Shown one piece after another: positions 1 to 16,023 of a stretch of 64,000 bases of DNA. Each line of letters begins with the position of its first letter. The stretch's first letter is position 1. The position numbers and the translations under genes were made by a program. The notes below the pieces were generated by a model. It was given only the letters and a program-made list of their open reading frames with translations. It was not told the DNA's origin and ran no database searches. The DNA comes from an uncultured Alphaproteobacteria bacterium (GTDB taxonomy: Bacteria > Pseudomonadota > Alphaproteobacteria > Methylaequorales > Methylaequoraceae), in contig CACIYM010000001.1 in assembly GCA_902590895.1 (NCBI GenBank), forward strand, positions 4,477 to 68,476, given 5' to 3'.

Positions 1-595
1 TTTGATTTTTTTTATTTTCTTTTACCATTTTATCCAGTTCTTGATTTATTTTTGCTGAAGTCATCACGTTTGATTCTGCAATTGATTTAACAAGTTTGTT
101 GGATTCATCCTTAATTGATTTTGATAAACCACTAGAGAGATTTGATATTTCCTTGGATAGGTTAATCATAAGCGTTTTATCATTTGATTTTATGGCATCT
201 GATAAGTTATCCACAGCACTTTTTAATTCAGTATTAGCATTAACAAGATCGCTGTGCCTCGCTAAACTTGAATTCATATTTTCGACAGCTTTATTTACAT
301 TTTCAACATTTTCAGCAAATACTACGAGTGCTTCCCTACTTGTACTTGTCATGTCCTCTAACTCCGATAAAGATTTAAAATATAGAAGTCCTGTTAGTAT
401 TATTGCAATAACAGCTGTTGCAATTGAACTTGAAAAAACAATTGTAGTGTATTTATGTATTTCTTTCACTTTTTGCTCCGCTTTTATATATTCATTTTTT
501 ATCTTTTTATATTCTGATGTAACATCGGTGGCAGCATCAGCAGCATCTAAAGCAATTTTAATGCTTTCTTGCATAGCGTTTATTTGTTGGTTCAT
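1..595 (-). CDS. membrane-anchored coiled-coil protein of unknown function (partial; 3' end beyond left edge of window)
   Basis: My own minus-strand translation from the ATG at 595-593 gives MNQQINAMQESIKIALDAADAATDV...TTIVFSSSIATAVIAIILTGLLYF (one TM)...ENVENVNKAVENMNSSLARHSDLVNANTELKSAVDNLSDAIKSNDK... The frame stays open to position 1. It is absent from the ORF track because it has no stop in the window. The listed + ORF 96..623 is its antisense shadow. It has an ATGA start/stop overlap with the upstream 66-aa ORF. Confidence 0.6.
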   Translation of the reverse strand, partial: MNQQINAMQESIKIALDAADAATDVTSEYKKIKNEYIKAEQKVKEIHKYTTIVFSSSIATAVIAIILTGLLYFKSLSELEDMTSTSREALVVFAENVENVNKAVENMNSSLARHSDLVNANTELKSAVDNLSDAIKSNDKTLMINLSKEISNLSSGLSKSIKDESNKLVKSIAESNVMTSAKINQELDKMVKENKKNQ

Positions 596-792
596 GCAAG
601 CAATCCTTTTTTCTTTATGTTAACATTTTTATTCTTTTTTGAAAATAGTGCACAATTTGTGCCAGAAATTGTTCTGACCTCTAGATAAGGAATTTTTTTT
701 GATATAACGCCAAAAGCTCTGCAGCCGTATGGATAGTTTCTTTTGTGAGTTATATAAAAGTGTTGGCAGTTATTACAATAATCCCTATTCAT
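592..792 (-). CDS. small Cys-containing protein (66 aa), unknown function
   Basis: ORF track. The N-terminus has a CNNC...GC pattern (MNRDYCNNCQHFYITHKRNYPYGCRAFG) plus a later Cys. An 8-nt overlap with the upstream ORF and an ATGA overlap with the downstream gene suggest a real, co-translated gene. I recognise no family. Confidence 0.45.
   Translation of the reverse strand: MNRDYCNNCQHFYITHKRNYPYGCRAFGVISKKIPYLEVRTISGTNCALFSKKNKNVNIKKKGLLA
649..664 (-). promoter_or_regulatory. sigma54-type promoter candidate (-24/-12) in front of the coiled-coil gene
   Basis: The minus strand reads TGGCAC-AAATT-GTGCA (GG-N10-GC spacing, perfect -24 hexamer, -12 one mismatch from TTGCA). It lies 53 nt upstream of the ATG at 595, with AGGA 8 nt before the ATG. 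It sits inside the 3' part of the 66-aa ORF. Confidence 0.5.
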
Positions 793-1021
793 TGTTCTTA
801 AGTTCCTTTATCTTTGATACTAATTTTGCTATTTGAAATCTTAAACCACCGGCAAAAGATGTTACGGCACAAAACCACAAAAAATATGACAAAAGAATGT
901 TTTCATCTTTGTAAGTTTCAATGGCTTTAAAATGGCAAACAACTGCACTGTAGAAAAATGCAAAGGTAATAATTAGTTGAGATATTTTTCTACTAAACAT
1001 TTTGTTTTCCATTTTCGTCAA
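785..1021 (-). CDS. small two-TM membrane protein, unknown function
   Basis: ORF track. Two hydrophobic helices (LIITFAFFYSAVVCHF and LLSYFLWFCAVTSFAGGL). It overlaps the flhB 3' end by 29 nt from the first ATG, or by 8 nt if Met8 at 1000 is the start. It overlaps the next ORF by 8 nt. Confidence 0.5.
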   Translation of the reverse strand: MTKMENKMFSRKISQLIITFAFFYSAVVCHFKAIETYKDENILLSYFLWFCAVTSFAGGLRFQIAKLVSKIKELKNNE

Positions 1022-2141
1022 AAATTAAGTCGCTAGGTACTTCAATTTCTGGTTTTTCGATTTCCTCGCCATTATTAATTTTATATATATACGCCAATGC
1101 TATAGCTACTGCATTATACAACTTACTTACTATTTCGTCACCAATTTCTGTAGTAAAGTATAATGCCCTAGCTAATATTGGACTTTGCATATTACCGATA
1201 TTAAGTTTTTTGGCCTTCTCAATTATTAATTCAGCATTTTTTCCTTTACCCTTTGCAATAACTATCGGTGCAGCTGAATCACCAACCTCATATTTAAGGG
1301 CAATTGCAAAATGAGTTGGGTTTGTAATTATCGCGGTTGCTTCATCAAGATTTTCTATAGATGCATTTTCTTGTCTAGTTTTTCTCGCAGCATTCATTTG
1401 TAATTTTCTTATTTTTTGTTTTACCTCTGGCTGACCATCAGTGTCTTTATATTCGTCTTTGATATCCTGATGGGACATTCTCAGTGATTTTATGTAGTCA
1501 TATTTTTGATAAGTGAAGTCGATTGCCGCAATAACTGCTAAAGCCACCAACAAGCAAATAACTAAAATTGGGAAAAAAGAGACAAGCCTTGATAAAGCTG
1601 AGAATAGGTTTGCCTCACTTATATTTATAATATCTGGAAGGTAAAAAATTAATACGAAATATGAAATAATCCCTAAGAAAAAAACTTTTAAAATTGATTT
1701 TGCTAGTTCGACAAGACCTTTAATGGCAAATATTTTACCAAGTCCCTTAATAGGATTCATTTTTTCAAATTTAAACTCAATAGATTTTAGAGAAAAGTTT
1801 ATCCCCCCAACCATGAATTGAGTTAAAATACAAATAATTACAAGTGGTGTAGAAAAGATAATAACTACTTTAACAATGAAATTAATAGCAGCCTTTACTG
1901 ATTCTAATGGGGATTTACCATTGTTTAATTCTGGTCCAAAATTAAAAAAAGAGGCAGTAATTTTTAAAAAATCATCTAGCAACGGCGGCATTAAATACAT
2001 CAATAAAACACCGATTGATAGAATAGTGAAAACCTGCATCTCTCTGGATGTAACAACTTTCCCATCCTCTTTAGCTTTTTCCAATCTTCGGGAGGTGGGG
2101 TCCTGGGTTTTTTCCTGACTTTCGTCTTTATCTTCAGCCAT
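993..2141 (-). CDS. flhB: flagellar type III export switch protein FlhB
   Basis: 382 aa with four N-terminal TM segments. Has the NPTH autocleavage motif (AIITNPTHFAIALKY) and a typical N-terminus (EKTQDPTSRRLEKAKEDGKV). Confidence 0.95.
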   Translation of the reverse strand: MAEDKDESQEKTQDPTSRRLEKAKEDGKVVTSREMQVFTILSIGVLLMYLMPPLLDDFLKITASFFNFGPELNNGKSPLESVKAAINFIVKVVIIFSTPLVIICILTQFMVGGINFSLKSIEFKFEKMNPIKGLGKIFAIKGLVELAKSILKVFFLGIISYFVLIFYLPDIINISEANLFSALSRLVSFFPILVICLLVALAVIAAIDFTYQKYDYIKSLRMSHQDIKDEYKDTDGQPEVKQKIRKLQMNAARKTRQENASIENLDEATAIITNPTHFAIALKYEVGDSAAPIVIAKGKGKNAELIIEKAKKLNIGNMQSPILARALYFTTEIGDEIVSKLYNAVAIALAYIYKINNGEEIEKPEIEVPSDLIFDENGKQNV

Positions 2142-2142
2142 T

Positions 2143-2964
2143 TTATTTTGATCCTACAAATAAGATTTCAACTGATTCAAGTGCATTTTTAGTCAAATCG
2201 GAAAAAGCATTACCTATTGTTCTTGATGATAAATAAAGAACAAAAAATGCAAGAAGTAATGTAACCGGAAAAGCAAATGAAAACATATTTAATTGTGGTG
2301 AAGATCTGGTGATAACTCCGATAGCGATATTTGCCATCAACAGTGATCCAACGACTGGTAACATAATCAATCCACCTGTATAAAACATTGCGCCTGCTGC
2401 CTCAATTCCTAACCCTACAAGTGATAAAGGTGGAAGTTCTGCGCTTAAATTATAAACTTCAAAGCTTTTAAATAAAAAATCTATCGCAATGAGGTGTCCA
2501 TTTAGTGATAAAAAAACTGTGATTAAAAATAGGTCTAAAATAATACTAATTACAGGGGTTTGACCACCAGTTTCGGGATCCACCATTTGTGAAAACCCAA
2601 GTCCAGTAGATGCTGCCATTTTTTCACCAGCTAAAGTTGCTGCACTAAACCAAATACTAAGAGTTAATCCTAATGAAATCCCAATTATTGCTTCAACAAT
2701 TACAATCATTAATAAGTTATCCATAACATACTGATTGACTTCAGTTTCTGAAATATAACCAAAATAAAAAAAAGAAATTACCATCGAAAAAACTATTTTT
2801 ACATTTAATGGTATATTCTTTGAACCAAGGAATGGACTGGAAATCAGAAATGAAGACAGTCTTATTGAGGATAAAAAGAATAAAAAAAGATAATCCATTA
2901 ATTCATTTAATTCTATCCCCGGAAGTGGATCCATAGGAGAAAAAAATGGAAGAGGAATGAACAT
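2143..2964 (-). CDS. fliR: flagellar export gate protein FliR
   Basis: A 273-aa polytopic membrane protein between fliQ and flhB, with a FliR-like sequence. There is a 1-nt gap to flhB and a 1-nt overlap with fliQ. Confidence 0.9.
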   Translation of the reverse strand: MFIPLPFFSPMDPLPGIELNELMDYLFLFFLSSIRLSSFLISSPFLGSKNIPLNVKIVFSMVISFFYFGYISETEVNQYVMDNLLMIVIVEAIIGISLGLTLSIWFSAATLAGEKMAASTGLGFSQMVDPETGGQTPVISIILDLFLITVFLSLNGHLIAIDFLFKSFEVYNLSAELPPLSLVGLGIEAAGAMFYTGGLIMLPVVGSLLMANIAIGVITRSSPQLNMFSFAFPVTLLLAFFVLYLSSRTIGNAFSDLTKNALESVEILFVGSK

Positions 2965-3230
2965 TATTTTATACCTGAGACTGTTTCAAAGATAAAATGA
3001 AAATAATCATGTAAGCTTACTAATAAGAAAGGAGCTAAAAAACCCATTGCAAAAATAACTAACACCATTTTTGGTACAAAACTTAAAGTCATTTCTTGAA
3101 TAGAAGTAGCGGCTTGTAAGATGCCTATTAACAAACCAATTGCTAACGCTGCTCCTAAAAACGGTCCACTAGTTATCAATACTTGATAAAAAGCTAATCT
3201 GACCATTTCAATATTTTCATCAAATCCCAT
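2964..3230 (-). CDS. fliQ: flagellar export gate protein FliQ
   Basis: The ORF track gives 2964..3290, but that start would overlap fliP by 46 nt. Met21 (ATG at 3230-3228) gives an 88-aa two-TM protein of typical FliQ size, 14 nt downstream of the fliP stop. Confidence 0.9.
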   Translation of the reverse strand: MGFDENIEMVRLAFYQVLITSGPFLGAALAIGLLIGILQAATSIQEMTLSFVPKMVLVIFAMGFLAPFLLVSLHDYFHFIFETVSGIK

Positions 3231-3244
3231 TAATAAACTTCTTT

Positions 3245-3994
3245 CTAAGGTGAAAATGTTCCAACTAATGAACCAACTGTCATTGACCATCCATCAACCA
3301 ATACGAATAAAAGAAGTTTAAATGGAAGTGCAATTAACATTGGTGATAACATCATCATACCTAGTGACATTAAAATAGAAGCAATTACCATATCAATTAC
3401 TAGAAACGGTAAAAACAACAAGAACCCAATCTGAAATGCAGTTTTTAGCTCACTAGTCATGTAAGCCGGAAGAATTATGTAAAACGGTATCTCAGAAGTA
3501 TCAAGAAATTCACCTTTGTTTGCCATATCTGAAAACATCACAAGATCATTTTTTCTGGTGTTTTTAATCATAAAACCCTTTAGTTCGTTACCCCCACTTT
3601 CAATAGCCTCACTTAAATTCATCTCTCCAGCCTGATAAGGTCCTGAAACAGTTGAATATATTTTGTTAAAAGTTGGGGCCATTACAAAAAATGTTAGAAA
3701 AAGTGAAATAGCAATAATAATTTGATTAGGTGGAGTTTGTTGGGTACCTAGTGCTTGTCTAAGAATTGACATAACAATTACTATTCTCGTGAAAGCAGTC
3801 ATACCCAAAACAAGTGAGGGTAGGATTGTTAATGCTGTCATTAATGCTAAAATTTTTAAAGATAGCGAATATGTTTTATCTCCATTAGCTGATTCTGTAA
3901 TAGTAAGTGCTTCTAATCCTCCTGGAACTGCCTGTGAGAATGCTAAAACTGGGAATAAAAATGTTATTATAAGAAAAATACTAAATTTTTTCAT
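3245..3994 (-). CDS. fliP: flagellar export gate protein FliP
   Basis: 249 aa with an N-terminal signal peptide (MKKFSIFLIITFLFPVLAFS). Has a conserved FliP core (TALTILPSLVLGMTAFTRIVIVMSILRQALGTQQTPPNQ). Confidence 0.95.
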   Translation of the reverse strand: MKKFSIFLIITFLFPVLAFSQAVPGGLEALTITESANGDKTYSLSLKILALMTALTILPSLVLGMTAFTRIVIVMSILRQALGTQQTPPNQIIIAISLFLTFFVMAPTFNKIYSTVSGPYQAGEMNLSEAIESGGNELKGFMIKNTRKNDLVMFSDMANKGEFLDTSEIPFYIILPAYMTSELKTAFQIGFLLFLPFLVIDMVIASILMSLGMMMLSPMLIALPFKLLLFVLVDGWSMTVGSLVGTFSP

Positions 3995-4310
3995 TTAATA
4001 ACCTTTTTTCAAAAACCTTTTCAAGATGTGATGTTTTATTTTTTGAATTTGTTTTAATTTCAGTTAATAGAGCTCCTGAGTTTTTTCCAGAAATAAATAA
4101 ATATTCTTTGTCATCAAGATTTAATATTAAAGCCCTATCTCCTTGACCAAGAATGGTCACATCAGATATTTTCATCCTTTTTTTTGAATTTAATTTTTGT
4201 GATATTACATGCTTATTTTTTTTTAGATAATAAAAACCAATAAGCATTGATAGTAAAAAACCTAAAACTAACAAATAGTTTGATAAACTGGGTCCTGTAA
4301 ATTCTTGCAT
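3981..4310 (-). CDS. fliO: FliO-like flagellar biosynthesis protein
   Basis: Single TM (LSNYLLVLGFLLSMLIGFYYL) followed by a small soluble domain. It sits immediately upstream of fliP and overlaps it by 14 nt. I place the start at the ATG at 4310-4308 (MQEFTG...), which is preceded by GAGG. The track's TTG start at 4340 lies inside the -12 element of the promoter. Confidence 0.6.
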   Translation of the reverse strand: MQEFTGPSLSNYLLVLGFLLSMLIGFYYLKKNKHVISQKLNSKKRMKISDVTILGQGDRALILNLDDKEYLFISGKNSGALLTEIKTNSKNKTSHLEKVFEKRLLNEKI

Positions 4311-4335
4311 ATTACCTCGCTTTTTATACAGAGGA

Positions 4336-4351
4336 TGCAAGAACCTTGCCG
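4336..4351 (-). promoter_or_regulatory. sigma54-type promoter (-24/-12) for fliOPQR-flhB
   Basis: The minus strand reads CGGCAAG-GTTC-TTGCA (GG-N10-GC; GGCA and TTGCA match the consensus TGGCAC-N5-TTGCW). It lies 25 nt upstream of the ATG at 4310, with GAGG in the short leader. Confidence 0.6.
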
Positions 4352-4430: not shown

Positions 4431-4835
4431 CTAGAGATTTTCAATTAATTCCTCAGGATCGGCCACTTCAGTAAATCTTATTCCAAACTTCTCGCCAACC
4501 ATAACAACTTCTCCTTTAGCTATTTTTGTTCCATTTGCAAGTATATCTAACGGTTCGCCTGCTAGTCTTTCAAGTTCAACCACGGAACCTTCATTAAGCC
4601 TTAATAGGTCTTTGATTTTTATCTCCGTGTTACCAACCTCCACAGTTAATTTAACCTCTATATTCTCTAATACTCGCAGGTTATTAACGGCTGCTGTCCC
4701 TTGTTTTGCAATTTTGTCATTAGGCTCACTTTGAGCATTGACATCACCGTCAGCTTTTGTCTCTTCAGGTTTATTTTCTTTAACTTCTTCGTTCGGTGTT
4801 TCTTTTTTTTCTTCTTGAGCAGTTTCAGCGTTCAT
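4431..4835 (-). CDS. fliN: flagellar motor switch protein FliN
   Basis: Has a C-terminal SpoA/FliN domain (LLRLNEGSVVELERLAGEPLDILANGTKIAKGEVVMVGEKFGIRFTEV). Lies downstream of fliM. Confidence 0.9.
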   Translation of the reverse strand: MNAETAQEEKKETPNEEVKENKPEETKADGDVNAQSEPNDKIAKQGTAAVNNLRVLENIEVKLTVEVGNTEIKIKDLLRLNEGSVVELERLAGEPLDILANGTKIAKGEVVMVGEKFGIRFTEVADPEELIENL

Positions 4836-4846
4836 TATATATCTCC

Positions 4847-5827
4847 TTAGTTTTTTAATCTTTTAGTTAATTTTACAGAAGCATTACCTTTAACTTCTCC
4901 CATTTCAGCCTTAAAATACTTTTGATTACTAACATAAAAATCGACGGTATCATCTACATTAATATTTAAAGTATCACCTTCTTTTATTCTAAGAAGTTTT
5001 GACATTGAAACAACAGGTTCTGATAAATTACTTTGAACTTTTAAAGGCACTTCTAGTACAGCCTTTTCTAATTTATCTCTCCAAGATAGATTAGTCTCTA
5101 CAACATCGGACTGTACCCTTGATCTTAGTAACGAAGATACTGGTTTAAGAGTTTGTAATGGGTAAACTATATCAAATGACATTGAGTCAACTTTTGGGAG
5201 TTGCATTACAAAAGAACAAACAATTATAAGATCAGAAGATTCAACAAAAGCTGCAAATTGCGGATTTTGTTCTCTACTATGAAATTTGATTGTAATTGGT
5301 GTCAAGTCTTTCCAGCTTTGCTCTAAAACTTTTGCTATACCTTCATTTACTACTTCAATTATTTTTTCTTCTGTAGAAGTGAATTCTGTTCTGTTTGTCT
5401 CAGAAACTTCAAGCTTCCCTCCATATCTGCTACTCGTACAAAGGTTGACAAAATTTGGTGGTAAGACTGTAAGCATTGAACCTCTAAGCTCATCAATTCT
5501 GCTATTCGTCATACTCATGAATGCATCCAATCCAGAGCTATATTCTTCGTATGATTTTACTTCAGGAGGAAAGGAGCTAATTCTTGGTTGAACTCTGAGT
5601 AATGGTAAAAAAACACTTCTCACTGTTCGAGCGAATCTTTCATTTATCAATCTTAATGCATAATAATCTCCAAGTAATGAAAGATCATCTGAACCAAATT
5701 GGAAGGTTTTGTATTCAATTTCTTTTCCATCTTTAATAGTAGTTGAGGCACTCAAATCACCAGACTTAAGTCCTTCCATTAGAGCGTTTACTTCTTCACT
5801 AGATAACTTTCTTGATGGTTCCACCAT
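4847..5827 (-). CDS. fliM: flagellar motor switch protein FliM
   Basis: 326 aa with an N-terminal CheY-binding-like LSSEEVNALMEGL. The C-terminus has a SpoA-like domain. Lies between fliL and fliN. Confidence 0.85.
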   Translation of the reverse strand: MVEPSRKLSSEEVNALMEGLKSGDLSASTTIKDGKEIEYKTFQFGSDDLSLLGDYYALRLINERFARTVRSVFLPLLRVQPRISSFPPEVKSYEEYSSGLDAFMSMTNSRIDELRGSMLTVLPPNFVNLCTSSRYGGKLEVSETNRTEFTSTEEKIIEVVNEGIAKVLEQSWKDLTPITIKFHSREQNPQFAAFVESSDLIIVCSFVMQLPKVDSMSFDIVYPLQTLKPVSSLLRSRVQSDVVETNLSWRDKLEKAVLEVPLKVQSNLSEPVVSMSKLLRIKEGDTLNINVDDTVDFYVSNQKYFKAEMGEVKGNASVKLTKRLKN

Positions 5828-5835: not shown

Positions 5836-6468
5836 CTATTGTAGTACAAAGGATGTAAAGTGAACATTTTCAACTCCACCAAATCCCTCAACCTTAACTA
5901 ATGTGTTGTTAATACCTTCTTTTAAAGAATCCGCAAGTTTTTGTTTGCCCTCTCTGCCTGCAATGTCCGCTGGGGAAAAGGTTGACATAATTGTTAGGAT
6001 CTCTGATCTAAGTGCTAATTGATGGCTATCAACATTAGCCATAACCTGCTCATCGTATTGTGTTGAAACCCCAAGTGATATTTGCAGAAATTTTTTTGAC
6101 TCTTTAAGATTGGTTGTAAAATTTCCTGGGAATTCGTAATATGTTGTTGCAAAAATTTCCTCTTCAGGTGTAATTTTTGGAATTTTTTTTGGGCCAACAG
6201 GACAATTACCTTCTTCATCTTTTTCCTCCTCAGCACACTCAGCTGCTACCTCTTCAACTTCTGCTTCAGTATCTTTTTCAGAAGCTTCTGGGTTTTCTTT
6301 TTTTTCAATAATTTGTGATATTTCGGTAGATGGATCTGATGATTCTCCACCACTCATAAGTATTCCAATTCCTAAACCTGCCCCGAGAAGTACAATACCT
6401 CCAACAATCATTAAAATTAATTTTATTGGACTTTTTTTTTCATTATCTTGGTTATTATCTTCAGCCAT
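5836..6468 (-). CDS. fliL: flagellar basal-body-associated protein FliL
   Basis: Single N-terminal TM (IKLILMIVGGIVLLGAGLGIGILM). Has a FliL-like C-terminal domain (YYEFPGNFTTNL...FLQISLGVST...LRSEILTIMS) and sits upstream of fliM. It also contains an acidic insert (see findings). Confidence 0.75.
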   Translation of the reverse strand: MAEDNNQDNEKKSPIKLILMIVGGIVLLGAGLGIGILMSGGESSDPSTEISQIIEKKENPEASEKDTEAEVEEVAAECAEEEKDEEGNCPVGPKKIPKITPEEEIFATTYYEFPGNFTTNLKESKKFLQISLGVSTQYDEQVMANVDSHQLALRSEILTIMSTFSPADIAGREGKQKLADSLKEGINNTLVKVEGFGGVENVHFTSFVLQ

Positions 6469-6496: not shown

Positions 6497-7771
6497 TTAT
6501 GCTTGCACATCAATATTATGGTTACTAATTATTGTTTTTTTATTATCAATTGATTTTCTTTTATTAACTATTTGCTGGTTATCAATAACTTTTTTTTTTT
6601 TGGGATTATTAAAATTGTTATTAGAATTACCTTCAAAAAAATTAGAAAACTTATCATTTTTACTTTCAATAAGCTCATTTAACTTTCCCAAGTTTTCATT
6701 AAGTATATTAGCTGATTCAATATTTTCGGCGTTAATTTGAATTTTTGTTGTATTATCTTTTACAGAAACATCTAAATTTATTTTACCTAGGCTTTTTGGT
6801 TTAAGTGTGATTTCAACTTTATTTAGACCGTTGGTAACAGCATTTTTAATCATTTTCGAAAACTTTTCTCCCCAACTGCTTTCCATTAAATTTAATATTT
6901 CAGGTGTTGCAAATAATTTTGTTGGTCTGGTCTTGTTTTCTAATAATTGGGTATTCTTTTCTTTTTTTAATTTTTGAATATTGTTACTGATATCAATATT
7001 TTTTTTGGAACTTGTTATTACTTGATTGAAATTTTGTTTAAGAGGATTATTGTTTTTAATGATTTGATTTTCCTCTTCATTATTTACGTTTGTAGTAAAT
7101 GATTGTTTTCTTTTTCTAATTTTTTTTTTCTCTGATACTAGTTCTGGTTGATTTGTAATTTTTTTTTTTAAATCAAACCCTTCATGATTATTTTTTTCCC
7201 CTTTTATCTCTCCTATTTTTGATTCTGTTCCTAAGTTACTAATTTTTAAATCACTGCTAGAGTTTACCTTAAAGTCTGACTTTGTATTTTTTTTTGGCGG
7301 TTTAAATGAGACAGCTACAGAAATATTTTCAGTATTAATTGTTTTCTCTGGATTATTAGATTTAATTAGATTTTGTCGATTTTCACTTGTTTTATTTGAA
7401 TCATTAGGAGTCAATATTTGATTATTTAAATTTTTAGAAAGTATATTTTTATTTTTTGAAAAATTAATGATTTCAGATTTGGGTTCATTCGTTTGAGTTA
7501 TGCCAACATCTTTATAAAAAATTTGTACTAAAGACTTTGCAAGATCTTCGGTTCTTGAATTATAATTTTGGGTGTATAAAGTGTTTTTATCACCTTCACT
7601 TTGATCAATATTGTAAATATTTGAATCATTTTCCGTATATTCTTCATTGCTTCCAGAATGCACCAAAGCGAATAGCTCAGCAAATAACAAATCTACTTCA
7701 TCAGGAGAAACATTTTGTTTGATTCCAACTAAATTTGATGCTGAATTTGTTTTATTATCTATTGAAACCAT
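6497..7771 (-). CDS. fliK: flagellar hook-length control protein FliK-like
   Basis: The C-terminal part (KVEITLKPKSLGKINLDVSVKDNTTKIQINAENIESANILNENLGKLNELI) resembles the FliK C-terminal (Flg_hook) domain. The N-terminal two thirds are N/K/S-rich low complexity. Lies between fliJ and fliL. Confidence 0.65.
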   Translation of the reverse strand: MVSIDNKTNSASNLVGIKQNVSPDEVDLLFAELFALVHSGSNEEYTENDSNIYNIDQSEGDKNTLYTQNYNSRTEDLAKSLVQIFYKDVGITQTNEPKSEIINFSKNKNILSKNLNNQILTPNDSNKTSENRQNLIKSNNPEKTINTENISVAVSFKPPKKNTKSDFKVNSSSDLKISNLGTESKIGEIKGEKNNHEGFDLKKKITNQPELVSEKKKIRKRKQSFTTNVNNEEENQIIKNNNPLKQNFNQVITSSKKNIDISNNIQKLKKEKNTQLLENKTRPTKLFATPEILNLMESSWGEKFSKMIKNAVTNGLNKVEITLKPKSLGKINLDVSVKDNTTKIQINAENIESANILNENLGKLNELIESKNDKFSNFFEGNSNNNFNNPKKKKVIDNQQIVNKRKSIDNKKTIISNHNIDVQA

Positions 7772-7796: not shown

Positions 7797-7812
7797 TGCA
7801 AATATAGTGCCA
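7797..7812 (-). promoter_or_regulatory. sigma54 promoter (-24/-12) for fliKLMN
   Basis: The minus strand reads TGGCAC-TATAT-TTGCA, a perfect match to TGGCAC-N5-TTGCA. It lies 10 nt after the fliJ stop and 25 nt upstream of the fliK ATG (7771), with AAAGG in the leader. Confidence 0.7.
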
Positions 7813-8233: not shown

Positions 8234-9550
8234 TTAAATGTTTTTTAATAAATCCATACTTTGGTTGAAGTCTTCTTTTTTTCTGTAATCTTGCTTGATT
8301 AACTCGCAAATTTTAGGCCATAACTCAATTGCTTTGTCAATTTCTTCATTTTGACCAGTATTGTAACCACCCATTAAAACTAGATCTTTATTTTCTTGAT
8401 ATATTGAAAAATATTTTTTTATCAGCTCAGATTTTTTTCTGTGTTCGTCAGTAATTATTGAATTCATTACTCTACTTAGAGATTGATTGATATCAATTGC
8501 TGGAAAGATACCTAGCTGTGCAAAATCTCTAGACAAAACAATATGTCCGTCAAGAATTGCTCTAGCCGTATCGACCACAGGATCGTTTGTGTCATCTGAA
8601 TCAGCTAAAATTGTATAAAAGCTTGTTATTGTTCCTTCATTTTGTGAACCTGCACCCGTTCTTTCAATTAGATTCGGTATCATTGAAATTACTGATGGAG
8701 GGTATCCTTTTGATGTTGGTTGTTCCCCTAATGCGAGACCAACTTCCCTTTTGGCATGGGCAATTCTTGTTAAAGAATCCATGATTAGCAGAACATTTTT
8801 ACCTTTTGCTCTAAAATATTCGGCAATTGATGTAGCTCTTTCTGCACCTTTAATTCTAAGTAAAGGAGATTTATCTGCCGGAACTGCGATAATTGTTGTT
8901 CTTTTTTTTGTTTCGTCATTAAGTATATCTGAAACAAAATTACCAAGCTCTCTCCCTCTTTCACCTATTAATGCTACTATCACAATGTCTGCATTTGTAA
9001 ATTTTGTCATCATTCCTAAAAGCATTGATTTACCAACTCCAGAGCCAGCTATAATTCCTAATCTTTGACCTCTACCAACAGTGAACATTGTATTAATTGC
9101 CTTTATTCCTACATCCAAAGTTTCACTTATTGGTTTACGCTTCATTGGATTAATTGGTTTACCATTCAAAGGCCAATGATCATTCAAGGAAATTTTTTTA
9201 CTTTCTTCATCAATAGGGTTTCCAAATGCATCGACTACTCTTCCCAAAATTTCATCCCCAACTTCAATGTTGGTGCTGGTATCGAGTGCCTCAATTATTG
9301 AACCAGAGATGAGATTTGCATTTTGGTTGTGAACAGCAATTAAATTTTTATTCTCTCTAAAACCAATAATTTCACCAGTTACGTTATCATCATTGTTACA
9401 ATATATTTTGCAAACAGTGCCAATTGGAGAAGGAAAGGCGTCACATTCAATAATTTTTCCATCAAATTTTGTGATTCTACTTTTGTAGGAGATATTTTTG
9501 TTAATTGAAAACTTTTCTAAATTTTCATTTATTTTTTTGGCTATAATCAT
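8234..9550 (-). CDS. fliI: flagellum-specific ATPase FliI
   Basis: 438 aa. Has Walker A GSGVGKS, Walker B LLIMDSLTR, and an F1/T3SS-ATPase-like sequence throughout. Confidence 0.95.
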   Translation of the reverse strand: MIIAKKINENLEKFSINKNISYKSRITKFDGKIIECDAFPSPIGTVCKIYCNNDDNVTGEIIGFRENKNLIAVHNQNANLISGSIIEALDTSTNIEVGDEILGRVVDAFGNPIDEESKKISLNDHWPLNGKPINPMKRKPISETLDVGIKAINTMFTVGRGQRLGIIAGSGVGKSMLLGMMTKFTNADIVIVALIGERGRELGNFVSDILNDETKKRTTIIAVPADKSPLLRIKGAERATSIAEYFRAKGKNVLLIMDSLTRIAHAKREVGLALGEQPTSKGYPPSVISMIPNLIERTGAGSQNEGTITSFYTILADSDDTNDPVVDTARAILDGHIVLSRDFAQLGIFPAIDINQSLSRVMNSIITDEHRKKSELIKKYFSIYQENKDLVLMGGYNTGQNEEIDKAIELWPKICELIKQDYRKKEDFNQSMDLLKNI

Positions 9551-10470
9551 TTTTTACTAGTATCTGACACATCATTATTTTTCAAAGTTTTATTATTATT
9601 ATTATTTTCTTGATTTTGATTTGAATTACTTTCAATATTCTTCTTAAGATCTTCTAAATCTTCATTAATATTAGATGATTGAACAAATTTAGTTTTATTA
9701 GAGAGTATATTTGCTACTTCAATAGATCCCGATTTTATTTTTAAATCACCACGTTGAAGATCATTATCAATTTCAAGTTTTTGATCAATATTTATTTTGT
9801 GGTCGGTAAGATATTTTGAAACAGATTCAAAATCTTCTTTATTAAGAAAAATTTTAACTTGCTTGAGAGAATTTTCAATTAAGTTACTTAATTCAGAAAC
9901 TTTTTCAAAAAATTTTTCTGTTTTTGTATCGATTTCATACCCTAGCATTTGTCTAGAAATTTTTTTCAAATTAGTGTTGATTTGATCATTTATCTGTCTG
10001 ATAAAATCAGGGGTCACTGTAAATATATTGTCAGCAAGATTTTTAAAGTTTACAGCAAGTGCCTGTTCACCTTTTTCAAGTTCCTCTTTGACTTTTTTTA
10101 CGCCGAGGTTGTAACCTTTATTATAATATTCTTTTGCAAGTTCGTTGGCCATTTTTTTTGCTTCTGTTTCAGTAATTTTTTTTTCTTCAATAGTTTCCTC
10201 TTTTTTTTCTTCTTCAGTTTCATCTTTCTTCACTTCTTTATCAACAATCTCAGGCTGCTCAGTTTTTTTTAAATTTTGTGAGTTTGACAAAGCCATATCC
10301 TTTGGTGTTTTTTTATTAAAAAGATACGAAACGTTTTCAGTAATTTCAGATTCTTTCTTGAAGTCTTGACTTGTTTTACTTAACAAACTTAGGATTTCTT
10401 CAGTATTTAAAGCACCAGTATTTTTTTTGTCTTGATCTTTTTTTTTTTGATTTTCTTGGATCTGCATCAT
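9547..10470 (-). CDS. fliH: flagellar assembly protein FliH-like
   Basis: Lies between fliG and fliI with 4-nt overlaps on both sides. Has a central coiled-coil segment (EAKKMANELAKEYYNKGYNLGVKKVKEELEKGEQ) typical of FliH. The N- and C-termini are low complexity. Confidence 0.65.
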   Translation of the reverse strand: MMQIQENQKKKDQDKKNTGALNTEEILSLLSKTSQDFKKESEITENVSYLFNKKTPKDMALSNSQNLKKTEQPEIVDKEVKKDETEEEKKEETIEEKKITETEAKKMANELAKEYYNKGYNLGVKKVKEELEKGEQALAVNFKNLADNIFTVTPDFIRQINDQINTNLKKISRQMLGYEIDTKTEKFFEKVSELSNLIENSLKQVKIFLNKEDFESVSKYLTDHKINIDQKLEIDNDLQRGDLKIKSGSIEVANILSNKTKFVQSSNINEDLEDLKKNIESNSNQNQENNNNNKTLKNNDVSDTSKK

Positions 10471-11516
10471 ACAAAGTCATCTCCACCTCTTCCAGCTAGA
10501 ACAATAGTTCCTTCATCTGACATTGTTCTTGCAACATTTATTACAGCTTTTTGTGCTTCTTGTACTTCTGTTAATCTTACTGGTCCAAGAACTTCCATCT
10601 CATCTTTAATATTTGCTGCAGCTCTTTGTGACATACAATTAAATATTTTTTCTTTCAGTTCATCCTCTGTCCCTTTTAGAGCAATAATTAAAATCTCTTG
10701 ATCAACATTTCTTAAAAGAGTTTGCATGCTCCTGTCATCCATTAAAATTAAAGTTTCAAATGTGAACATACTTTCTTGTATTTCTTTTGCTAGGTGTCTA
10801 TCTTTTTCACCCAAGGATTTAATAACTCTTTGTTCCATATTTTGCTTAGTGAAGTTCATTATTGAAGCTGCTGCTTTTATCCCACCGACTGAAGATGCTC
10901 TAAGAGAAGTATTAGTTTTAAATTTAAGTTGCATAACTCTTTCGAGCTCAGCTAAAGCATCAGGCTGGACTGTTTCAAGTGTTGCTATTCTGTGAATTAT
11001 GTCCGACTGAATGTCTTCTGGAAGTAAAACAAGTACATCCGCAGCTACCCCTGGTTCAAGATATGAAATAATGAGAGACATAATTTGCGGATGTTCATCC
11101 GCTATTAGTTCTGCAACTGACCTAGCATCCATCCAATCAAGAATTTCAATAGGTTTATCACTTTCAGTAGGTGTAATTCTTCCAAGAACTGACTGTGCTT
11201 TATTTTCGCCTAAAGCTTTTGTCATAACATTTTTGATATAATTAGATGAGCCCATTCCAAGATCAGTTTGCGTTTTTATTATCGCAAGAAATTCATCTAA
11301 AACTTTATTTACCGTGTCTTGATCTAACCCTTGAACATTATACATCTCTTTACCAAGCTGTTGAACTTCTTTTGGCCCAAGATTTCTTAGGATTTCCGAT
11401 GCTTCATCTTCTCCCAATAACATCATTAATATTGCGCATTTTTGTGTGCTGGTCAGTTTTTCGTAAAATGAAAGTTCTTCTTCGTTTTTATTTTCTTCTG
11501 TTTGTTTTTCGGCCAT
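10467..11516 (-). CDS. fliG: flagellar motor switch protein FliG
   Basis: 349 aa with the MFTFETL motif and a typical LTSTQKCAILMMLLGEDEASEILRNL N-terminus. The charged C-terminal torque helix region is present. Confidence 0.95.
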   Translation of the reverse strand: MAEKQTEENKNEEELSFYEKLTSTQKCAILMMLLGEDEASEILRNLGPKEVQQLGKEMYNVQGLDQDTVNKVLDEFLAIIKTQTDLGMGSSNYIKNVMTKALGENKAQSVLGRITPTESDKPIEILDWMDARSVAELIADEHPQIMSLIISYLEPGVAADVLVLLPEDIQSDIIHRIATLETVQPDALAELERVMQLKFKTNTSLRASSVGGIKAAASIMNFTKQNMEQRVIKSLGEKDRHLAKEIQESMFTFETLILMDDRSMQTLLRNVDQEILIIALKGTEDELKEKIFNCMSQRAAANIKDEMEVLGPVRLTEVQEAQKAVINVARTMSDEGTIVLAGRGGDDFV

Positions 11517-11535: not shown

Positions 11536-13254
11536 CTATGCATCTTTTTTCATTAGTTGTCTAAATACATTTGATACCTTCCCTGCTTCATCTCCCACAA
11601 TCATTCTGATTACTGCCACTTTATCGTCATATGTGTTAGCAGTATCTAGCATTTCAGCTGAAATTGCAGTTTTCTTAGGTTTTAATTTAGCTTTTATATC
11701 CTCTATTGATTCACCTTCTTGAACCTCTACCTCGGCTTCTGCTTCTTCTGGTTCAAGATCTGCTTCAGACATTCCAGCTCCAGCACCAACTCCTGCTGAT
11801 GGCACTAAAATTCTATTTAACAATGGTTTCAAAGCCCCGAATGTAACAATTGCTAAGATAAGAACGGTAGAAATTTGACCAATAAGATTTTGAAACCATG
11901 ATTCTTCATACCATTTAGTTGATATTAAATCCATCTCTTCAATGAAATCTCCACTTGTCACAACAATGCTATCGCCTCTATCACCGTTAAATCCTACTGC
12001 CTCCTTTACAAGCGAGGAGATTTTTTCTTTATCTTCTTCACTAATTGGTTCAGAAACGATACCCTCTGGTGACTCGACAGCTTTGTTTTTTACTAAAACT
12101 GCTGTTTTTACTCTTCTAATTTTACCAATTTGACCAACAGTTGTACTAAGTTTTTTACTAACTTCATAATTCTTCACATTTGATGATGATCTTTGTTTGA
12201 ATTCTGCTGGGTCACCCTCGACTGGAGTGTCAATTTGTAAATCAGCTGCAAGAGGAGCTTGATTTGCAACTGCTCCTGGAATACCTCTTGCGGGTCTATC
12301 TGTTGACTCATCCAAACTGTTTTGTTCACTTCTTGGCGCAATGGTTTCTGGGTCGAATGTCTCCTCAGTGGTTTGGGTATTTGTAAAGTCCATTTCTACA
12401 TTTACTTCAGCGGTGATGTTTCCTGCTCCAACTATTGGTGAAACCAAAGATAAAATTCTCTCTCTGTAAAGTGACTCAATCTTAATCCTGTGATTAAGCT
12501 GTTTTTCAGTTAAAGCTATATTAGGATCGTTTTCAGGCTTTGAAAGAAGTTTACCATACTGATCAACAACAGTTACATTATCAGAAGACATATTAGGAAT
12601 AGATGATGAAACAATATGGACTATGGATCTTACCTGTTCACGATTCAGAACTCTGCCGTCAGCAAGTTTCACAAAAACTGAGGCTGTTGGAGATGCAGAG
12701 TTTCTTACAAAAACAGATCTCTCTGGTATCGCCAAGTGCACTCTTGCACCTAAAATGTAAGAGATTTCATTTATTGACCTAGCTAATTCTATTTCTTGTG
12801 TTTGTTTCATCTTCATAAATTCTACTGATCGACTTGTTCCCATAGGAATTTTCTCTAAAATGTCATATCCCTGAGGTATAGAACTTGGAAGACCTTCCGC
12901 TGCAAGTTTCATTTTTGCTTCATAATATTCTGGTGATGGGACAAGTATTTCGCCGGTAGTAGAGTCAATCGAGACATCTATTCCATTAGATCTAAGTACA
13001 TCAATAACCCTTGATTTTTCATGTTCTGGTAATGATGAAAATAGTGTTGTTCTAGATGGTTCCTTGAAAGAAAGAAATAAAATCATTCCTATAAAAATTA
13101 CAAATAAAGTTATCATTACTGGAATAGATCTTTGAACAGCCGGTTCATTTGAAAGTTTTCTTAACTTTTCAAGTGAGTTCCCAATACTCGAAACAATACC
13201 TTTGTTAGCTAATTGAGCGTTTGTAATTTCAGATGTTTGTACTTGTTCAGCCAT
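11536..13254 (-). CDS. fliF: flagellar MS-ring protein FliF
   Basis: 572 aa with an N-terminal TM, a periplasmic ring-building region and a C-terminal TM. The sequence is typical of FliF (GYDILEKIPMGTSRSVEFMKMKQTQEIELARSI). Confidence 0.95.
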   Translation of the reverse strand: MAEQVQTSEITNAQLANKGIVSSIGNSLEKLRKLSNEPAVQRSIPVMITLFVIFIGMILFLSFKEPSRTTLFSSLPEHEKSRVIDVLRSNGIDVSIDSTTGEILVPSPEYYEAKMKLAAEGLPSSIPQGYDILEKIPMGTSRSVEFMKMKQTQEIELARSINEISYILGARVHLAIPERSVFVRNSASPTASVFVKLADGRVLNREQVRSIVHIVSSSIPNMSSDNVTVVDQYGKLLSKPENDPNIALTEKQLNHRIKIESLYRERILSLVSPIVGAGNITAEVNVEMDFTNTQTTEETFDPETIAPRSEQNSLDESTDRPARGIPGAVANQAPLAADLQIDTPVEGDPAEFKQRSSSNVKNYEVSKKLSTTVGQIGKIRRVKTAVLVKNKAVESPEGIVSEPISEEDKEKISSLVKEAVGFNGDRGDSIVVTSGDFIEEMDLISTKWYEESWFQNLIGQISTVLILAIVTFGALKPLLNRILVPSAGVGAGAGMSEADLEPEEAEAEVEVQEGESIEDIKAKLKPKKTAISAEMLDTANTYDDKVAVIRMIVGDEAGKVSNVFRQLMKKDA

Positions 13255-13272
13255 TTCTTACCCCTTACTGTT

Positions 13273-13617
13273 CTAAACCGGCATATTCATTATATCTTTG
13301 TATGCAGATAAAACCTTATTTCTAATATTTAACGTCATTTGAAATCCTAAACTGGCCATTTGCTGATTTATCATTACTTTGGTTAAATCATTTTCAATTC
13401 CAAGTTCATATTTTTTTGTCAGTTCAGCACTGTGAGTTTGGTTATCTGAAACTTCAGTTATTGCATTCTTTATACTTTGTAAAAAATCAAGATCCCTATT
13501 GTTTTCAATTTTTGGTGAAAGATTTGCGACACTTTCTTGAAGGTTCTTGATTTGTTCTTGGTTGTTATTAGTCTCTACTAATTGAGGTTTAAAAACAGTT
13601 GTTAAATTTGGTTTCAT
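13273..13617 (-). CDS. fliE: flagellar hook-basal body protein FliE
   Basis: 114 aa. The C-terminus NIRNKVLSAYKDIMNMPV matches the conserved FliE end (VRNK..AYQEIM.M). Confidence 0.8.
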   Translation of the reverse strand: MKPNLTTVFKPQLVETNNNQEQIKNLQESVANLSPKIENNRDLDFLQSIKNAITEVSDNQTHSAELTKKYELGIENDLTKVMINQQMASLGFQMTLNIRNKVLSAYKDIMNMPV

Positions 13618-13635
13618 TTTTATCTTTCTTAAAGT

Positions 13636-14781
13636 TTATAATGCTGCCTGCGAAATCTTTTCGTCAAAATTTTTATATAAATTGTTATTGCAACTCACAT
13701 CAACCATAATGTGACTTTCATCTATGATTTTATCATCACTTAAAACAATTGCTCTTTGCAAAACATTTTCTAGTTCTCTAACATTTCCTGGCCAACTATA
13801 ACTAGTAAGAATTTTTTTTGCTTTATCTGTTATAAAAGGAAGTTTTCCGAATTCTGTGTGTCTTTTAAGTAATGCTATACTAATAGGTATAATATCATCT
13901 GTTCTTTCAGATAAATGTAGTGTTTCAATAGGAAAAACATTTAGTCTATAGTAAAGATCCTCTCTGAATTTTTTTTCTTTGACTTCTTCAATCATGTTCC
14001 TGTTTGTTGTTGCTATCACTCTTACATCAACATCTATATCTCTTTGTCCTCCAATTGGCGTTACTTTCTTTTCTTGTAAAACCCTCAATAATTTGGCTTG
14101 AAGAGATAAAGGCATTTCTGAAATTTCGTCAAGTAATAGTGTTCCAGTATCAGCAGCTCTAAAAATACCTTTATTTGCCGACGAGGCACCTGTAAAAGCA
14201 CCTTTTTCATGTCCAAAAAGCATCGCTTCTAACATATTTTCTGGGATTGCCGCGCAATTTATTGCAACAAATGGTTTTTCAGATCTAACAGAATTTTGGT
14301 GAATATAGTTTGAAATTACCTCTTTGCCTGTCCCCGTCGGTCCATGTATAAAAACGGTAACATCTGTCTTTGCAACTTTTTCAGCCATTTTAACTAAAGA
14401 ATATGTTTTGGGATCAGAAAAACTGTATTTGTCATCAGAAAGTGACTGAAAAATGATTTCTAAAATTACGTCATTAAAATCTTTGAGTGAAATTATCACA
14501 TAAGCTCCACCTAAATCATTTTGCATTTCGTAACCTGCTTCAGATTTTTCTAAAACTAGTATATTAGTAGAACCAAAGGTTCTGGAAACTTTTAAAATCT
14601 CTGATTTTCCCCCAATTTTTTCTTGCAAATTTTTAGCGCAAATAATTGTTGATTTGTTTTTTTCAATTTTTTTAATTTCATTTAAACTTATTGTTTGTAC
14701 ATTAAGATTCTTTTTCTTTAAAAAATTTAGTACTAAATTTTTTTCTTCAAAATTTTCTTCTATAATAAATATTTCTTTCAT
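13636..14781 (-). CDS. sigma54-dependent activator with a degenerate REC-like N-domain and AAA+ core but no DNA-binding domain (FleT/FlrC-like)
   Basis: Has Walker A GPTGTGKE, the GAFTGA loop ([10 protein letters not shown]), LLLDEI and PGNVRELEN. The N-terminal ~125 aa looks REC-like but has IFIIEEN in place of the DD pocket and no acceptor Asp (STIICAKNL). The protein ends ~45 aa after the AAA+ lid with no Fis-type HTH. It is the first gene of the fliE-fliJ string (18 nt before fliE). Confidence 0.85.
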   Translation of the reverse strand: MKEIFIIEENFEEKNLVLNFLKKKNLNVQTISLNEIKKIEKNKSTIICAKNLQEKIGGKSEILKVSRTFGSTNILVLEKSEAGYEMQNDLGGAYVIISLKDFNDVILEIIFQSLSDDKYSFSDPKTYSLVKMAEKVAKTDVTVFIHGPTGTGKEVISNYIHQNSVRSEKPFVAINCAAIPENMLEAMLFGHEKGAFTGASSANKGIFRAADTGTLLLDEISEMPLSLQAKLLRVLQEKKVTPIGGQRDIDVDVRVIATTNRNMIEEVKEKKFREDLYYRLNVFPIETLHLSERTDDIIPISIALLKRHTEFGKLPFITDKAKKILTSYSWPGNVRELENVLQRAIVLSDDKIIDESHIMVDVSCNNNLYKNFDEKISQAAL

Positions 14782-14811
14782 TTGTAACCTTGATAAAGTT
14801 TCTAAGCTAAA

Positions 14812-14827
14812 AGCAAAAAACTTACCA
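14812..14827 (-). promoter_or_regulatory. sigma54-type promoter candidate for the activator-fliEFGHIJ operon
   Basis: The minus strand reads TGGTAA-GTTTT-TTGCT (GG-N10-GC; good -12, weaker -24). It lies 30 nt upstream of the ATG at 14781, with AAGG in the leader. An A19 tract starts 6 nt upstream of the -24 element. Confidence 0.4.
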
Positions 14828-14833
14828 ATTTAC

Positions 14834-14859
14834 TTTTTTTTTTTTTTTTTTTAAAAAAA
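14834..14859. repeat. T19 A7 homopolymer tract in the divergent regulator intergenic region
   Basis: Counted directly: T at 14834-14852 (19) followed by A at 14853-14859 (7). The count agrees with the FFFFFF* ending of the spurious + ORF 14654..14854. Confidence 0.9.
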
Positions 14860-14887
14860 CTGTTTAAAATCAATGACTTAAAATTTT

Positions 14888-14902
14888 TTATTATTATTAT
14901 TA
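14888..14902. repeat. (TTA)5 microsatellite
   Basis: Read directly as ttattattattatta. It lies in the same intergenic region, about 50 nt upstream of the ATG at 14953. Confidence 0.85.
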
Positions 14903-14952
14903 TTTTTTTAATATCATTATCGTCATTTTTCTGACATTATTTTAAAGTTATT

Positions 14953-16023
14953 ATGAATAACATTATTAAAGGAAACTGTGAGGCTACATCAGAGCTGAAA
15001 AAATTGGTAGAAATGGTCTCAATTTCTAATTCAACTGTATTGTTACGTGGTGAGACTGGTTGTGGAAAAGATGTTGTTGCACGAGCAATTCATCAAACTT
15101 CTAAAAGAGCAGGAGAATTGGTCAATGTAAACTGTGCAGCTATACCCTCCGAGTTATTAGAGTCAGAGCTTTTTGGTCATGAAAAAGGTGCATTTACAGG
15201 AGCAGATAACAGAAGAGAGGGAAGATTTGAGGCCTCAGACCAAGGTACACTTTTTCTTGACGAAATTGGCGATATGCCCCTTCCTCTTCAGGCAAAATTA
15301 TTAAGAGCCATTGAAACAAGAACTATACAAAGAGTAGGGGGTAAAGGTGAAATCAAACTGGATCTTAGACTTATTTGTGCAACACATCAAAATATCGAAA
15401 AGAAAATTGATGAGGGTCTCTTTAGGGCTGATTTATTTTATAGAATTAATGTGTTTCCAATTGAAATCCCCACTTTAGCTGAAAGAAAGGAAGATATTCC
15501 AATATTAGTTACGCACATTTTAAATGAAATAAGAGAAAATGGATCAAAGTCTCCTTCATTTGAGGAATCGGCTTTAACTGCCTTAAAAGAGTATGTTTGG
15601 CCTGGTAACATAAGAGAATTAAAAAATTTAATTGAAAGAGCGGCAATCATTTTTGGAGACAAAAAAATCAATGGGAAGAACATAAGAGAAAATTTACTAA
15701 AAATCAATCTTCCAGATTTCAAAGAGGAAAAGGATGTTTTATGGGATTTAACATCTGATCTTGCAGAAGTTGAAGAAAAGACAGAGCAAAATCATGACGA
15801 GAGTTCAATGCCGCATCCTAATCATTACAAAAAATGGTTTGAATATTTAGATAAAATAGATTTAAGGAGACACCTAAGCGAAATAGAGTATATTTTAATT
15901 GAAGGGGCCTTAAAAAAAAATAGTGGATCGGTAACAGCTGCTTCAAAAAGTCTTAAAATTAACAGAACCACCCTAATTGAAAAAATGAAAAAATATTCAA
16001 TTCCAAAAGCAGGAAATGATTAA
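14953..16023 (+). CDS. sigma54-dependent activator with AAA+ core plus C-terminal Fis-type HTH and no N-terminal sensor domain (FleQ/PspF-like architecture)
   Basis: Starts directly in the AAA+ module (GETGCGKD at aa 33-40). Has [25 protein letters not shown] and a C-terminal HTH ([24 protein letters not shown]). An in-frame TGA at 14932-14934 excludes an N-terminal extension. Confidence 0.9.

Follow-up and report, generated by a model that had tools for sequence, protein, structure and literature searches.

A Fla1-type flagellar gene cluster, probably native, in a streamlined marine alphaproteobacterium of the order TMED127/Methylaequorales

Analysis of a 64,000-nucleotide (nt) stretch of contig CACIYM010000001.1 (positions 4,477 to 68,476, hereafter the window), from the genome of an uncultured alphaproteobacterium of the family Methylaequoraceae (assembly GCA_902590895.1), identified a colinear flagellar gene cluster at window positions 1-16023. 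Very likely, this region is the core half (MS ring, C ring, type III export, and hook-length control) of the only flagellar system of the bacterium, regulated by sigma-54 activators without a sensor kinase and passed on by vertical descent from the ancestor of the order TMED127/Methylaequorales or earlier. The system belongs to the Fla1 lineage of Cereibacter (Rhodobacter) sphaeroides, which is the "fla3-type" of the Petersen laboratory. The likeness to the fla1 cluster of R. sphaeroides had already been pointed out in a first-pass annotation of the stretch, and it was borne out by the FleT-like gene at the head of the cluster, the sigma-54 promoters, the presence of FlgT and FlgP, and a grouping with Rhodobacterales fla3-type sequences with a support of 100/100. 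The same annotation had proposed that the cluster was acquired horizontally by this lineage and then ameliorated to the AT-richness of its host, a proposal that found no support in the order-wide identical layout, in the native codon usage and GC content at third codon positions (GC3), or in the phylogeny.

An unbroken minus-strand run from position 14781 to position 993 comprises the gene of a sigma-54 activator followed by fliE-F-G-H-I-J-K-L-M-N-O-P-Q-R and flhB, as seen from open reading frames (ORFs) and Pfam and NCBIfam matches, while a second sigma-54 activator is encoded divergently on the plus strand (14953-16023). The contiguity and order of the genes from fliE to flhB, with an activator, were thus confirmed as first described by both family databases, with fliJ recognised by position and fliO by position and a sub-threshold match. 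No unrelated gene was found within the fliE-to-flhB run, whose only notable gaps measure 50 nt between fliJ and fliK, where a sigma-54 promoter is located, and 90 nt between fliN and fliO. All genes of the run lie on the minus strand. The rod adaptor gene fliE (13273-13617; PF02049, 85.5 bits; TIGR00205, 80.4 bits) is followed by fliF, encoding the MS ring (11536-13254; YscJ_FliF and YscJ_FliF_C; TIGR00206, 261 bits), the rotor/switch gene fliG (10467-11516; FliG_N, FliG_M, and FliG_C; TIGR00207, 335 bits), fliH, encoding the export ATPase regulator (9547-10470; PF02108, 43 bits), and fliI, encoding the export ATPase itself (8234-9550; ATP-synt_ab and T3SS_ATPase_C; NCBIfam FliI_clade1, 556 bits). 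The protein of 135 amino acids (aa) encoded at 7822-8229 had no family match in Pfam or NCBIfam and was assigned as FliJ by its position, in which a homologue was found in all TMED127 loci examined. The run continues with the hook-length control gene fliK (6497-7771; PF02120, 44 bits), fliL (5836-6468; PF03748, 72.5 bits), and the C-ring genes fliM (4847-5827; FliM and FliMN_C; TIGR01397, 256 bits) and fliN (4431-4835; FliMN_C, 81 bits; TIGR02480, 107 bits). The 119-aa fliO product (3981-4340) showed a weak match to TIGR03500 (28.2 bits, below the cut-off of 55.25), and its position is kept in TMED127. The last genes are fliP (3245-3994; PF00813, 260 bits), fliQ (2964-3290; Bac_export_3, 85 bits; TIGR01402, 90.6 bits over residues 21-105), the true start of which is probably internal to the listed ORF, fliR (2143-2964; Bac_export_1, 189 bits), and flhB (993-2141; Bac_export_2, 337 bits; TIGR00328, 342 bits).

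The divergent gene at 14953-16023 encodes a FleQ-like activator of 356 aa with Pfam matches to Sigma54_activat (225 bits), AAA_lid_14, and the helix-turn-helix (HTH) family HTH_8 at residues 308-348; the protein starts directly with the AAA+ domain, contains GAFTGA and Walker A motifs in its translation, and is devoid of an N-terminal regulatory domain. A FleQ-like gene occupies the same divergent position in six further TMED127 genera and in SAR116, and in a seventh genus the contig ends before it. The FleT-like activator (381 aa; 13636-14781, minus strand) is the product of the first gene of the fliE-J operon and consists of an N-terminus of about 120 aa without recognised domain, an AAA+ domain containing GAFTGA (Sigma54_activat, 235 bits), and a lid (AAA_lid_14, ending at residue 362); no HTH_8 or other DNA-binding domain and no Response_reg domain was matched in it by Pfam. 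Between the two activators there is no ORF, and so no kinase gene, in the window or in the SAR116 loci, whereas Vibrio and Pseudoalteromonas loci show an ORF of 354-381 aa between two longer, co-directional activators. The "Vibrio/Pseudomonas layout" to which the cluster had been assigned was therefore an imprecise description, since a kinase gene is absent and the activators are divergent, one of them lacking the DNA-binding domain and the other the N-terminal domain. As read from the genes, the regulation is of the kinase-less FleQ/FleT type of Cereibacter sphaeroides and not of the Vibrio FlrABC type.

Three conserved promoter motifs accompany these activators. A sigma-54-type promoter, TGGTAA-N5-TTGC (GG-N10-GC), is located at 14813-14827 on the minus strand, some 30 nt before the start codon of the fleT-like gene, and a TGG-N9-TGC motif was detected at the equivalent place in six of the seven other TMED127 loci, in three SAR116 loci, and in two Rhodobacterales loci. 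Immediately upstream of the motif in the window, some 22 A residues stand in a row (14828-14852), either as a homopolymer sensitive to assembly or perhaps as an element that is bendable or UP-like. The promoter between fliJ and fliK, TGGCAC-N5-TTGC (7798-7812, minus strand), matches the sigma-54 consensus exactly and is kept in eight TMED127 genera, this one included, and in two SAR116 loci. The third, TGGCAC-N5-TGTGC (650-664, minus strand; one mismatch), lies inside a gene for a 66-aa protein and upstream of a MotF-like gene, both described below, and is kept in the same number of TMED127 genera, again counting this one, and in SAR116. In four relatives, rpoN was found about 15 kb from fliI.

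In C. sphaeroides, FleQ together with RpoN2 transcribes fleT-fliEFGHIJ, and FleT, which is devoid of a DNA-binding domain, joins FleQ to activate the next class of genes (PMC7277832; PMC11999139). By analogy, the FleQ-like activator, with its AAA+ and HTH domains, would bind DNA and, with RpoN, fire the fleT-like promoter, leading to expression of fleT-fliEFGHIJ. The FleT-like activator, itself without DNA-binding domain, would next join FleQ, and the two would fire the fliK promoter, giving rise to fliKLMNOPQR-flhB and two small genes that follow flhB, as well as the promoter of the MotF-like gene and those of a second block of flagellar genes. FliA and FlgM would then release late genes such as those of the flagellins. 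No sensor kinase would take part in this circuit.

Between 11 and 29 kb beyond the end of the window, the second block encodes FlgF, FlgE, FlgD, FlgC, FlgB, a DUF2802 protein, FlgM, FlgA, and FlgT, and continues with FlgP, FlhA, a weakly matching FlhF, FlhG, FliA, and FlgG. FlgT_N (38.6 bits, cut-off 28.8) and LPP20/FlgP (34.1 bits, cut-off 25.9) were both matched above threshold at genome coordinates C1:89587-91300. The genes motA and motB are situated at the very start of the contig, facing the cluster, and flagellin genes are present elsewhere in the genome. Altogether, the flagellar regulon occupies about 36 kb in three places, or approximately 2.4% of an estimated genome of 1.5 Mb, and a single FliI was found per genome, both in the genome of the window and in members of the order. 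The hook protein FlgE (1290 aa; C1:80573-84445, some 12 kb beyond the window) is roughly three times the enteric size and has ordinary-looking termini and a long middle part rich in T, S, N, and G. MotB (390 aa; C1:896-2071, plus strand) carries a long acidic, low-complexity linker between the plug/transmembrane (TM) region and the OmpA domain.

Positions 1-1021 are occupied not by flhA but by three further conserved genes on the minus strand, encoding proteins of 78, 66, and 241 aa. The 78-aa gene (785-1021) overlaps the end of flhB and has positional homologues in seven further TMED127 genera and one SAR116-like family; the 66-aa gene (592-792) is kept after flhB in seven further TMED127 genera and four SAR116-like loci. 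The two genes overlap each other and are chained to flhB; their products had no family match in Pfam or NCBIfam and may represent components of this flagellar type that have yet to be characterised. The MotF-like membrane protein of 241 aa is encoded by window 1-595 and the 127 nt before the window start (C1:4349-5095). It has no Pfam match; its only TM helix spans approximately residues 50-73, and its C-terminal residues are ITFP. Homologues directly after flhB were found in SAR116 (127 bits, ending in ISFP), and an ORF at the equivalent position of R. kunshanensis gave a 34-bit phmmer match and ends in FTYP. The published MotF is a 24-kDa protein with a TM segment at 54-74 (PMC7277832), and it has been described as restricted to Rhodobacteraceae; the size and the predicted TM position of the 241-aa protein fit the description of MotF. 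Just outside the window, the MotF-like gene is followed by a gene for a 257-aa protein (C1:3568-4338, minus strand), which has a homologue in the same position in a SAR116 single amplified genome (L043:20336-21163; 29% identity, E = 1e-32).

The description of the host as a streamlined alphaproteobacterium was upheld by its housekeeping genes, a GC content of about 30%, a small genome, and kinship within its GTDB family with the single amplified genome AG-892-F10, the FliI of which is 75% identical to that of the window. The assembly comprises 1.07 Mb in 43 contigs, is 70.75% complete, and points to a full size of about 1.5 Mb; a congener that is 98% complete has 1.6 Mb. Apart from the flagellar cluster, the window encodes TopA, RNase R, AspS, DnaB, Der, PyrC, PurF, and BamB. 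AG-892-F10 is the type of Methylaequor ceniphilum in TMED127/Methylaequorales, an order of abundant marine methylotrophs with very small genomes which have been described as obligate, lanthanide-dependent methanol oxidisers, have three genera that each reach up to approximately 4% of the reads in marine metagenomes, and branch deeply beside Puniceispirillales, TMED109, and Rickettsiales in a NuoL tree (PMC12542740).

The distribution of the cluster was assessed in 42 genomes of the order, which belong to one family and 14 genera. FliI orthologues (69-100% identity) were detected in 31 of these genomes, in 12 of the 14 genera, and in all nine high-quality genomes of the order; the 11 genomes without a FliI match are all incomplete. 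Seven loci from seven further genera showed identical gene order and orientation, including the three genes after flhB in every case, and all cluster genes are intact and without stops in eight genera, that of the window among them. The same order is also present in SAR116. The arrangement is ancestral in the lineage, and not an addition made by this genome. Three SAR116-like families with 45-52% GC also share the layout. The comparison of codon usage and GC3 revealed no compositional anomaly: GC3 was 0.207 in the cluster vs. 0.212 in the rest of the genome (p = 0.71), the Kullback-Leibler divergence of codon usage was 0.0068, inside a null distribution with its 95th percentile at 0.0071, and GC was raised only at the first and second codon positions, as expected for conserved proteins.

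The core flagellar genes are under strong purifying selection. Indeed, in comparison with congener G003, nonsynonymous divergence (dN) was 0.03-0.09 for core genes, lower than the 0.136 of TopA, with synonymous divergence (dS) saturated. The fliK gene evolves fast, with 44% identity within the genus. TopA (window 56415-58895) is 54-55% identical between TMED127 genera vs. 69-75% for the FliI of the same genomes, so that the flagellar core of this order evolves more slowly than a housekeeping protein. Composition, distribution, and phylogeny led to the rejection of a recent horizontal transfer.

By FliI identity, the cluster is closer to beta- and gammaproteobacterial flagella (42-49%) than to typical alphaproteobacterial ones (36-39%), and among the NCBIfam models it ranks highest with FliI_clade1 (556 bits), followed by clade2 (494) and clade3 (456). 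The closest matches came from other Alphaproteobacteria, namely Sphingomonadaceae (45-51%), R. kunshanensis and Planktomarina (52%), named SAR116 members (52-55%), and the three SAR116-like families (57-59%). This type of FliI is rare and patchy in the class: at E <= 1e-100 it was found in 14 of 401 alphaproteobacterial genomes (307 genera), four of the 14 belonging to TMED127. A quick-search tree of 118 FliI sequences, for which five typical-alpha FliI served as the root, united all alphaproteobacterial Fla1-type sequences in one clade (Shimodaira-Hasegawa-like approximate likelihood ratio test, SH-aLRT, 99), and the typical-alpha FliI formed a separate clade (SH-aLRT 100) on a very long branch. 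In this tree, the alphaproteobacterial Fla1-type appeared nested among gammaproteobacterial sequences, with backbone support of 80-94, an arrangement that was dropped after an approximately unbiased (AU) test: with typical-alpha FliI included, gamma- plus betaproteobacteria as one clade were not rejected (p-AU 0.61) and had a likelihood 6.15 units better. Trees of seven proteins (FliF, FliG, FliI, FliM, FliP, FliR, and FlhB; approximately 2500 columns) built with a careful search separated alphaproteobacterial Fla1-type from gamma- plus betaproteobacteria with 100/100, and the core proteins do not nest among gammaproteobacterial sequences. Three clans are therefore distinguished in what is an unrooted tree: typical alpha, alpha Fla1-type, and gamma plus beta.

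After the addition of SAR116-like taxa, the seven-protein tree placed TMED127 (100/100) as sister to SAR116 (100/99) with 97/94; the next branches were Planktomarina with family f241, then R. kunshanensis, then Sphingomonadales. TMED127, SAR116, R. kunshanensis, and Planktomarina form a group with 100/100 that excludes Sphingomonadales and gamma- and betaproteobacteria. The published NuoL tree likewise places the two orders side by side within Alphaproteobacteria (PMC12542740), and the cluster has probably been inherited vertically since the common ancestor with SAR116/Puniceispirillales. Two further observations emerged from the sampling. A genome of family f241 (G606; 38% GC, 2.5 Mb) carries a fleT-fliE-F-G-I cluster on L176 that groups with Planktomarina (97/93), an indication that clusters of this kind may be present in still other hosts. 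In public metagenome-assembled genomes, beta/gamma-type fliE-fliI clusters were seen on contigs with the labels Bifidobacterium, Actinomycetota, and "Candidatus Fonsibacter lacus" (L100, L104, and L105), most likely as a result of binning contamination.

Three other histories have to be weighed against a native, functional cluster. An import by this lineage from a Vibrio/Pseudomonas-type gammaproteobacterium, followed by amelioration, would account for the FliI similarity and the FliI_clade1 ranking, as well as for the presence of FlgT and FlgP, H-ring and basal-disk parts known from Vibrio, and the C. sphaeroides Fla1 has indeed been attributed to an ancient gammaproteobacterium (PMC7277832). 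However, the closest sequences all come from Alphaproteobacteria (SAR116-like, 52-59%; Rhodobacterales, 52%; Sphingomonadaceae, 45-51%), the alpha Fla1-type clan stands apart from all sampled gamma- and betaproteobacteria, the identical layout is found order-wide without compositional anomaly, and the absence of a kinase and the architecture of the activators are unlike those of gammaproteobacterial loci. For any transfer that postdates the order, the gammaproteobacterial source suggested by the first-pass annotation is contradicted by these data, and it is highly improbable as an explanation. An older inter-class transfer, for instance with a stem beta/gammaproteobacterium as donor, may have given rise to the whole alphaproteobacterial Fla1-type lineage, but it would predate TMED127 and SAR116. 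Equally improbable as a gammaproteobacterial import by this lineage is that the cluster is in decay and has ceased to produce a flagellum: the genomes are streamlined, no motility has been reported for TMED127, and FliI was missing from the 11 genomes mentioned above, but the genes are intact in eight genera with very low dN and saturated dS, the promoters are conserved, the remaining flagellar genes are present, and all nine high-quality genomes have FliI.

The alternative that deserves more attention, although still an unlikely one, is a horizontal passage, in which the ancestor of TMED127 gave the cluster to that of SAR116/Puniceispirillales or received it from there, or in which another marine alphaproteobacterium was the donor, with vertical descent since. 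This type of cluster does move, as fla3-type systems are scattered in Rhodobacterales (23 of 306 genomes) and have been explained by operons received horizontally from other orders of the class (PMC12363192), and in our trees Rhodobacterales are paraphyletic beside the TMED127 plus SAR116 clade. Moreover, no non-flagellar flanking gene on the activator side is common to the SAR116 loci and the window, and no grouping of TMED127 and SAR116 is resolved by TopA. Against such a passage, the two orders are reciprocally monophyletic sisters, neither nested in the other, their long stems (0.46 for TMED127) fit an old separation, and the published tree places both together among the deep-branching alphaproteobacteria (PMC12542740).

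Several points weigh against the native, Fla1-type reading. The AT-rich composition violates the models in all trees. The species kinship of TMED127 and SAR116 was taken from a published single-gene NuoL tree (PMC12542740), and the TopA tree is uninformative on the sister group: TMED127 sits there on a branch 1.7 substitutions per site long, within an unresolved alphaproteobacterial polytomy into which xanthomonad and betaproteobacterial TopA are mixed; this single-gene placement, together with the lack of resolution by TopA, is what leaves some probability to a transfer between TMED127 and SAR116. The FleQ-like and MotF-like proteins were assigned by architecture and position, so that they are putative counterparts of FleQ and MotF, and the FlhF match is weak (SRP54, 19.4 bits vs. 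a cut-off of 22.7). The rpoN gene was found neither in this 70.75%-complete assembly, where a search of the six frames for the RpoN box by regular expression gave no match, nor in G002; in the former, its syntenic position lies beyond the contig start. Lastly, the paper describing the order mentions neither flagella nor motility, and no match for flagella was obtained in the supplements examined (PMC12542740).

A further question is how far back the cluster goes. On one tentative reading, the kinase-less FleQ/FleT flagellum was retained from a deep-branching marine alphaproteobacterial ancestor of TMED127 and SAR116, possibly from the ancestor of Alphaproteobacteria, and was not imported from Gammaproteobacteria; at present this is a possibility more than an expectation. 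It is allowed by the trees, because the AU test on FliI does not reject gamma- and betaproteobacteria as a clade and the seven-protein split between this clade and the alphaproteobacterial sequences is clean. The colinear fliE-to-flhB order is also present in Firmicutes (fla/che operon of B. subtilis), so that it is likely an old arrangement and not a marker of gammaproteobacterial origin. If true, the colinear order and the beta/gamma similarity would be conserved ancestral traits, the CtrA-controlled alphaproteobacterial flagellum would be a fast-evolving, rearranged derivative or a separate old lineage, and Rhodobacterales, including C. sphaeroides with its Fla1, would have received their copy from marine alphaproteobacteria. 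In any case, the Rhodobacterales fla3-type has its nearest kin in TMED127 and SAR116, which makes these two a candidate source group for C. sphaeroides Fla1, and the label "gamma-type" has no support in the sense of a nested position within Gammaproteobacteria. For the biology of the order, a complete regulon under strong purifying selection suggests that TMED127 cells are very probably swimmers, unlike SAR11, and swimming would change the picture of how they find patchy methanol sources such as phytoplankton.

Typical alphaproteobacterial flagella are CtrA-controlled and follow a different regulatory logic. The statement that their clusters are ordered differently held in five typical-alpha loci, which have no colinear cluster around fliI. 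Although the organelle and the host class are the same, the system described here differs from those of Caulobacter, Rhizobiales, and the Rhodobacterales "fla1-type" (which is the C. sphaeroides Fla2) in its colinear order, in a FliI identity of only 36-39%, and in its separate clade. With Vibrio and Pseudomonas it shares sigma-54 dependence, two activators upstream of fliE, the colinear fliE-to-flhB order, the set flhA-flhF-flhG-fliA, and the presence of FlgT and FlgP. Unlike in these bacteria, however, the activators are divergent and some 100-150 aa shorter, flhA is not adjacent to flhB, and the sequences form a separate clan (100/100).

The resemblance to the C. sphaeroides Fla1 is much closer. 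In both systems, a fleT-like gene without DNA-binding domain heads fliEFGHIJ, fliKLMNOPQR-flhB is located behind a sigma-54 promoter of its own, a second, HTH-bearing activator is present without a sensor kinase, FlgT and FlgP are encoded, and a single-pass membrane protein, MotF or MotF-like, follows flhB. Differences were found in genomic context, since the TMED127 cluster is the sole, chromosomal, and order-wide system and not a patchy second set beside a CtrA-controlled one, as well as in two extra small genes (78 and 66 aa) after flhB and in the 1290-aa hook protein. In addition, the FleQ-like gene lies divergently beside fleT, whereas the R. kunshanensis locus showed none over 10 kb, and identity to the Rhodobacterales fla3-type is modest (FliI, 52%; FlhB, 38%). 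The closest counterpart is that of SAR116/Puniceispirillales. These bacteria differ in genome size and composition (about 2 Mb and 45-52% GC vs. about 1.5 Mb and 30% GC here), their proteins are 43-73% identical to those of the cluster, and only one SAR116-like family was found to have the 78-aa gene. Nevertheless, the layout is identical down to the divergent FleQ-like gene and the genes for the 66-aa, MotF-like, and 257-aa proteins, and it is accompanied by conserved sigma-54 motifs.

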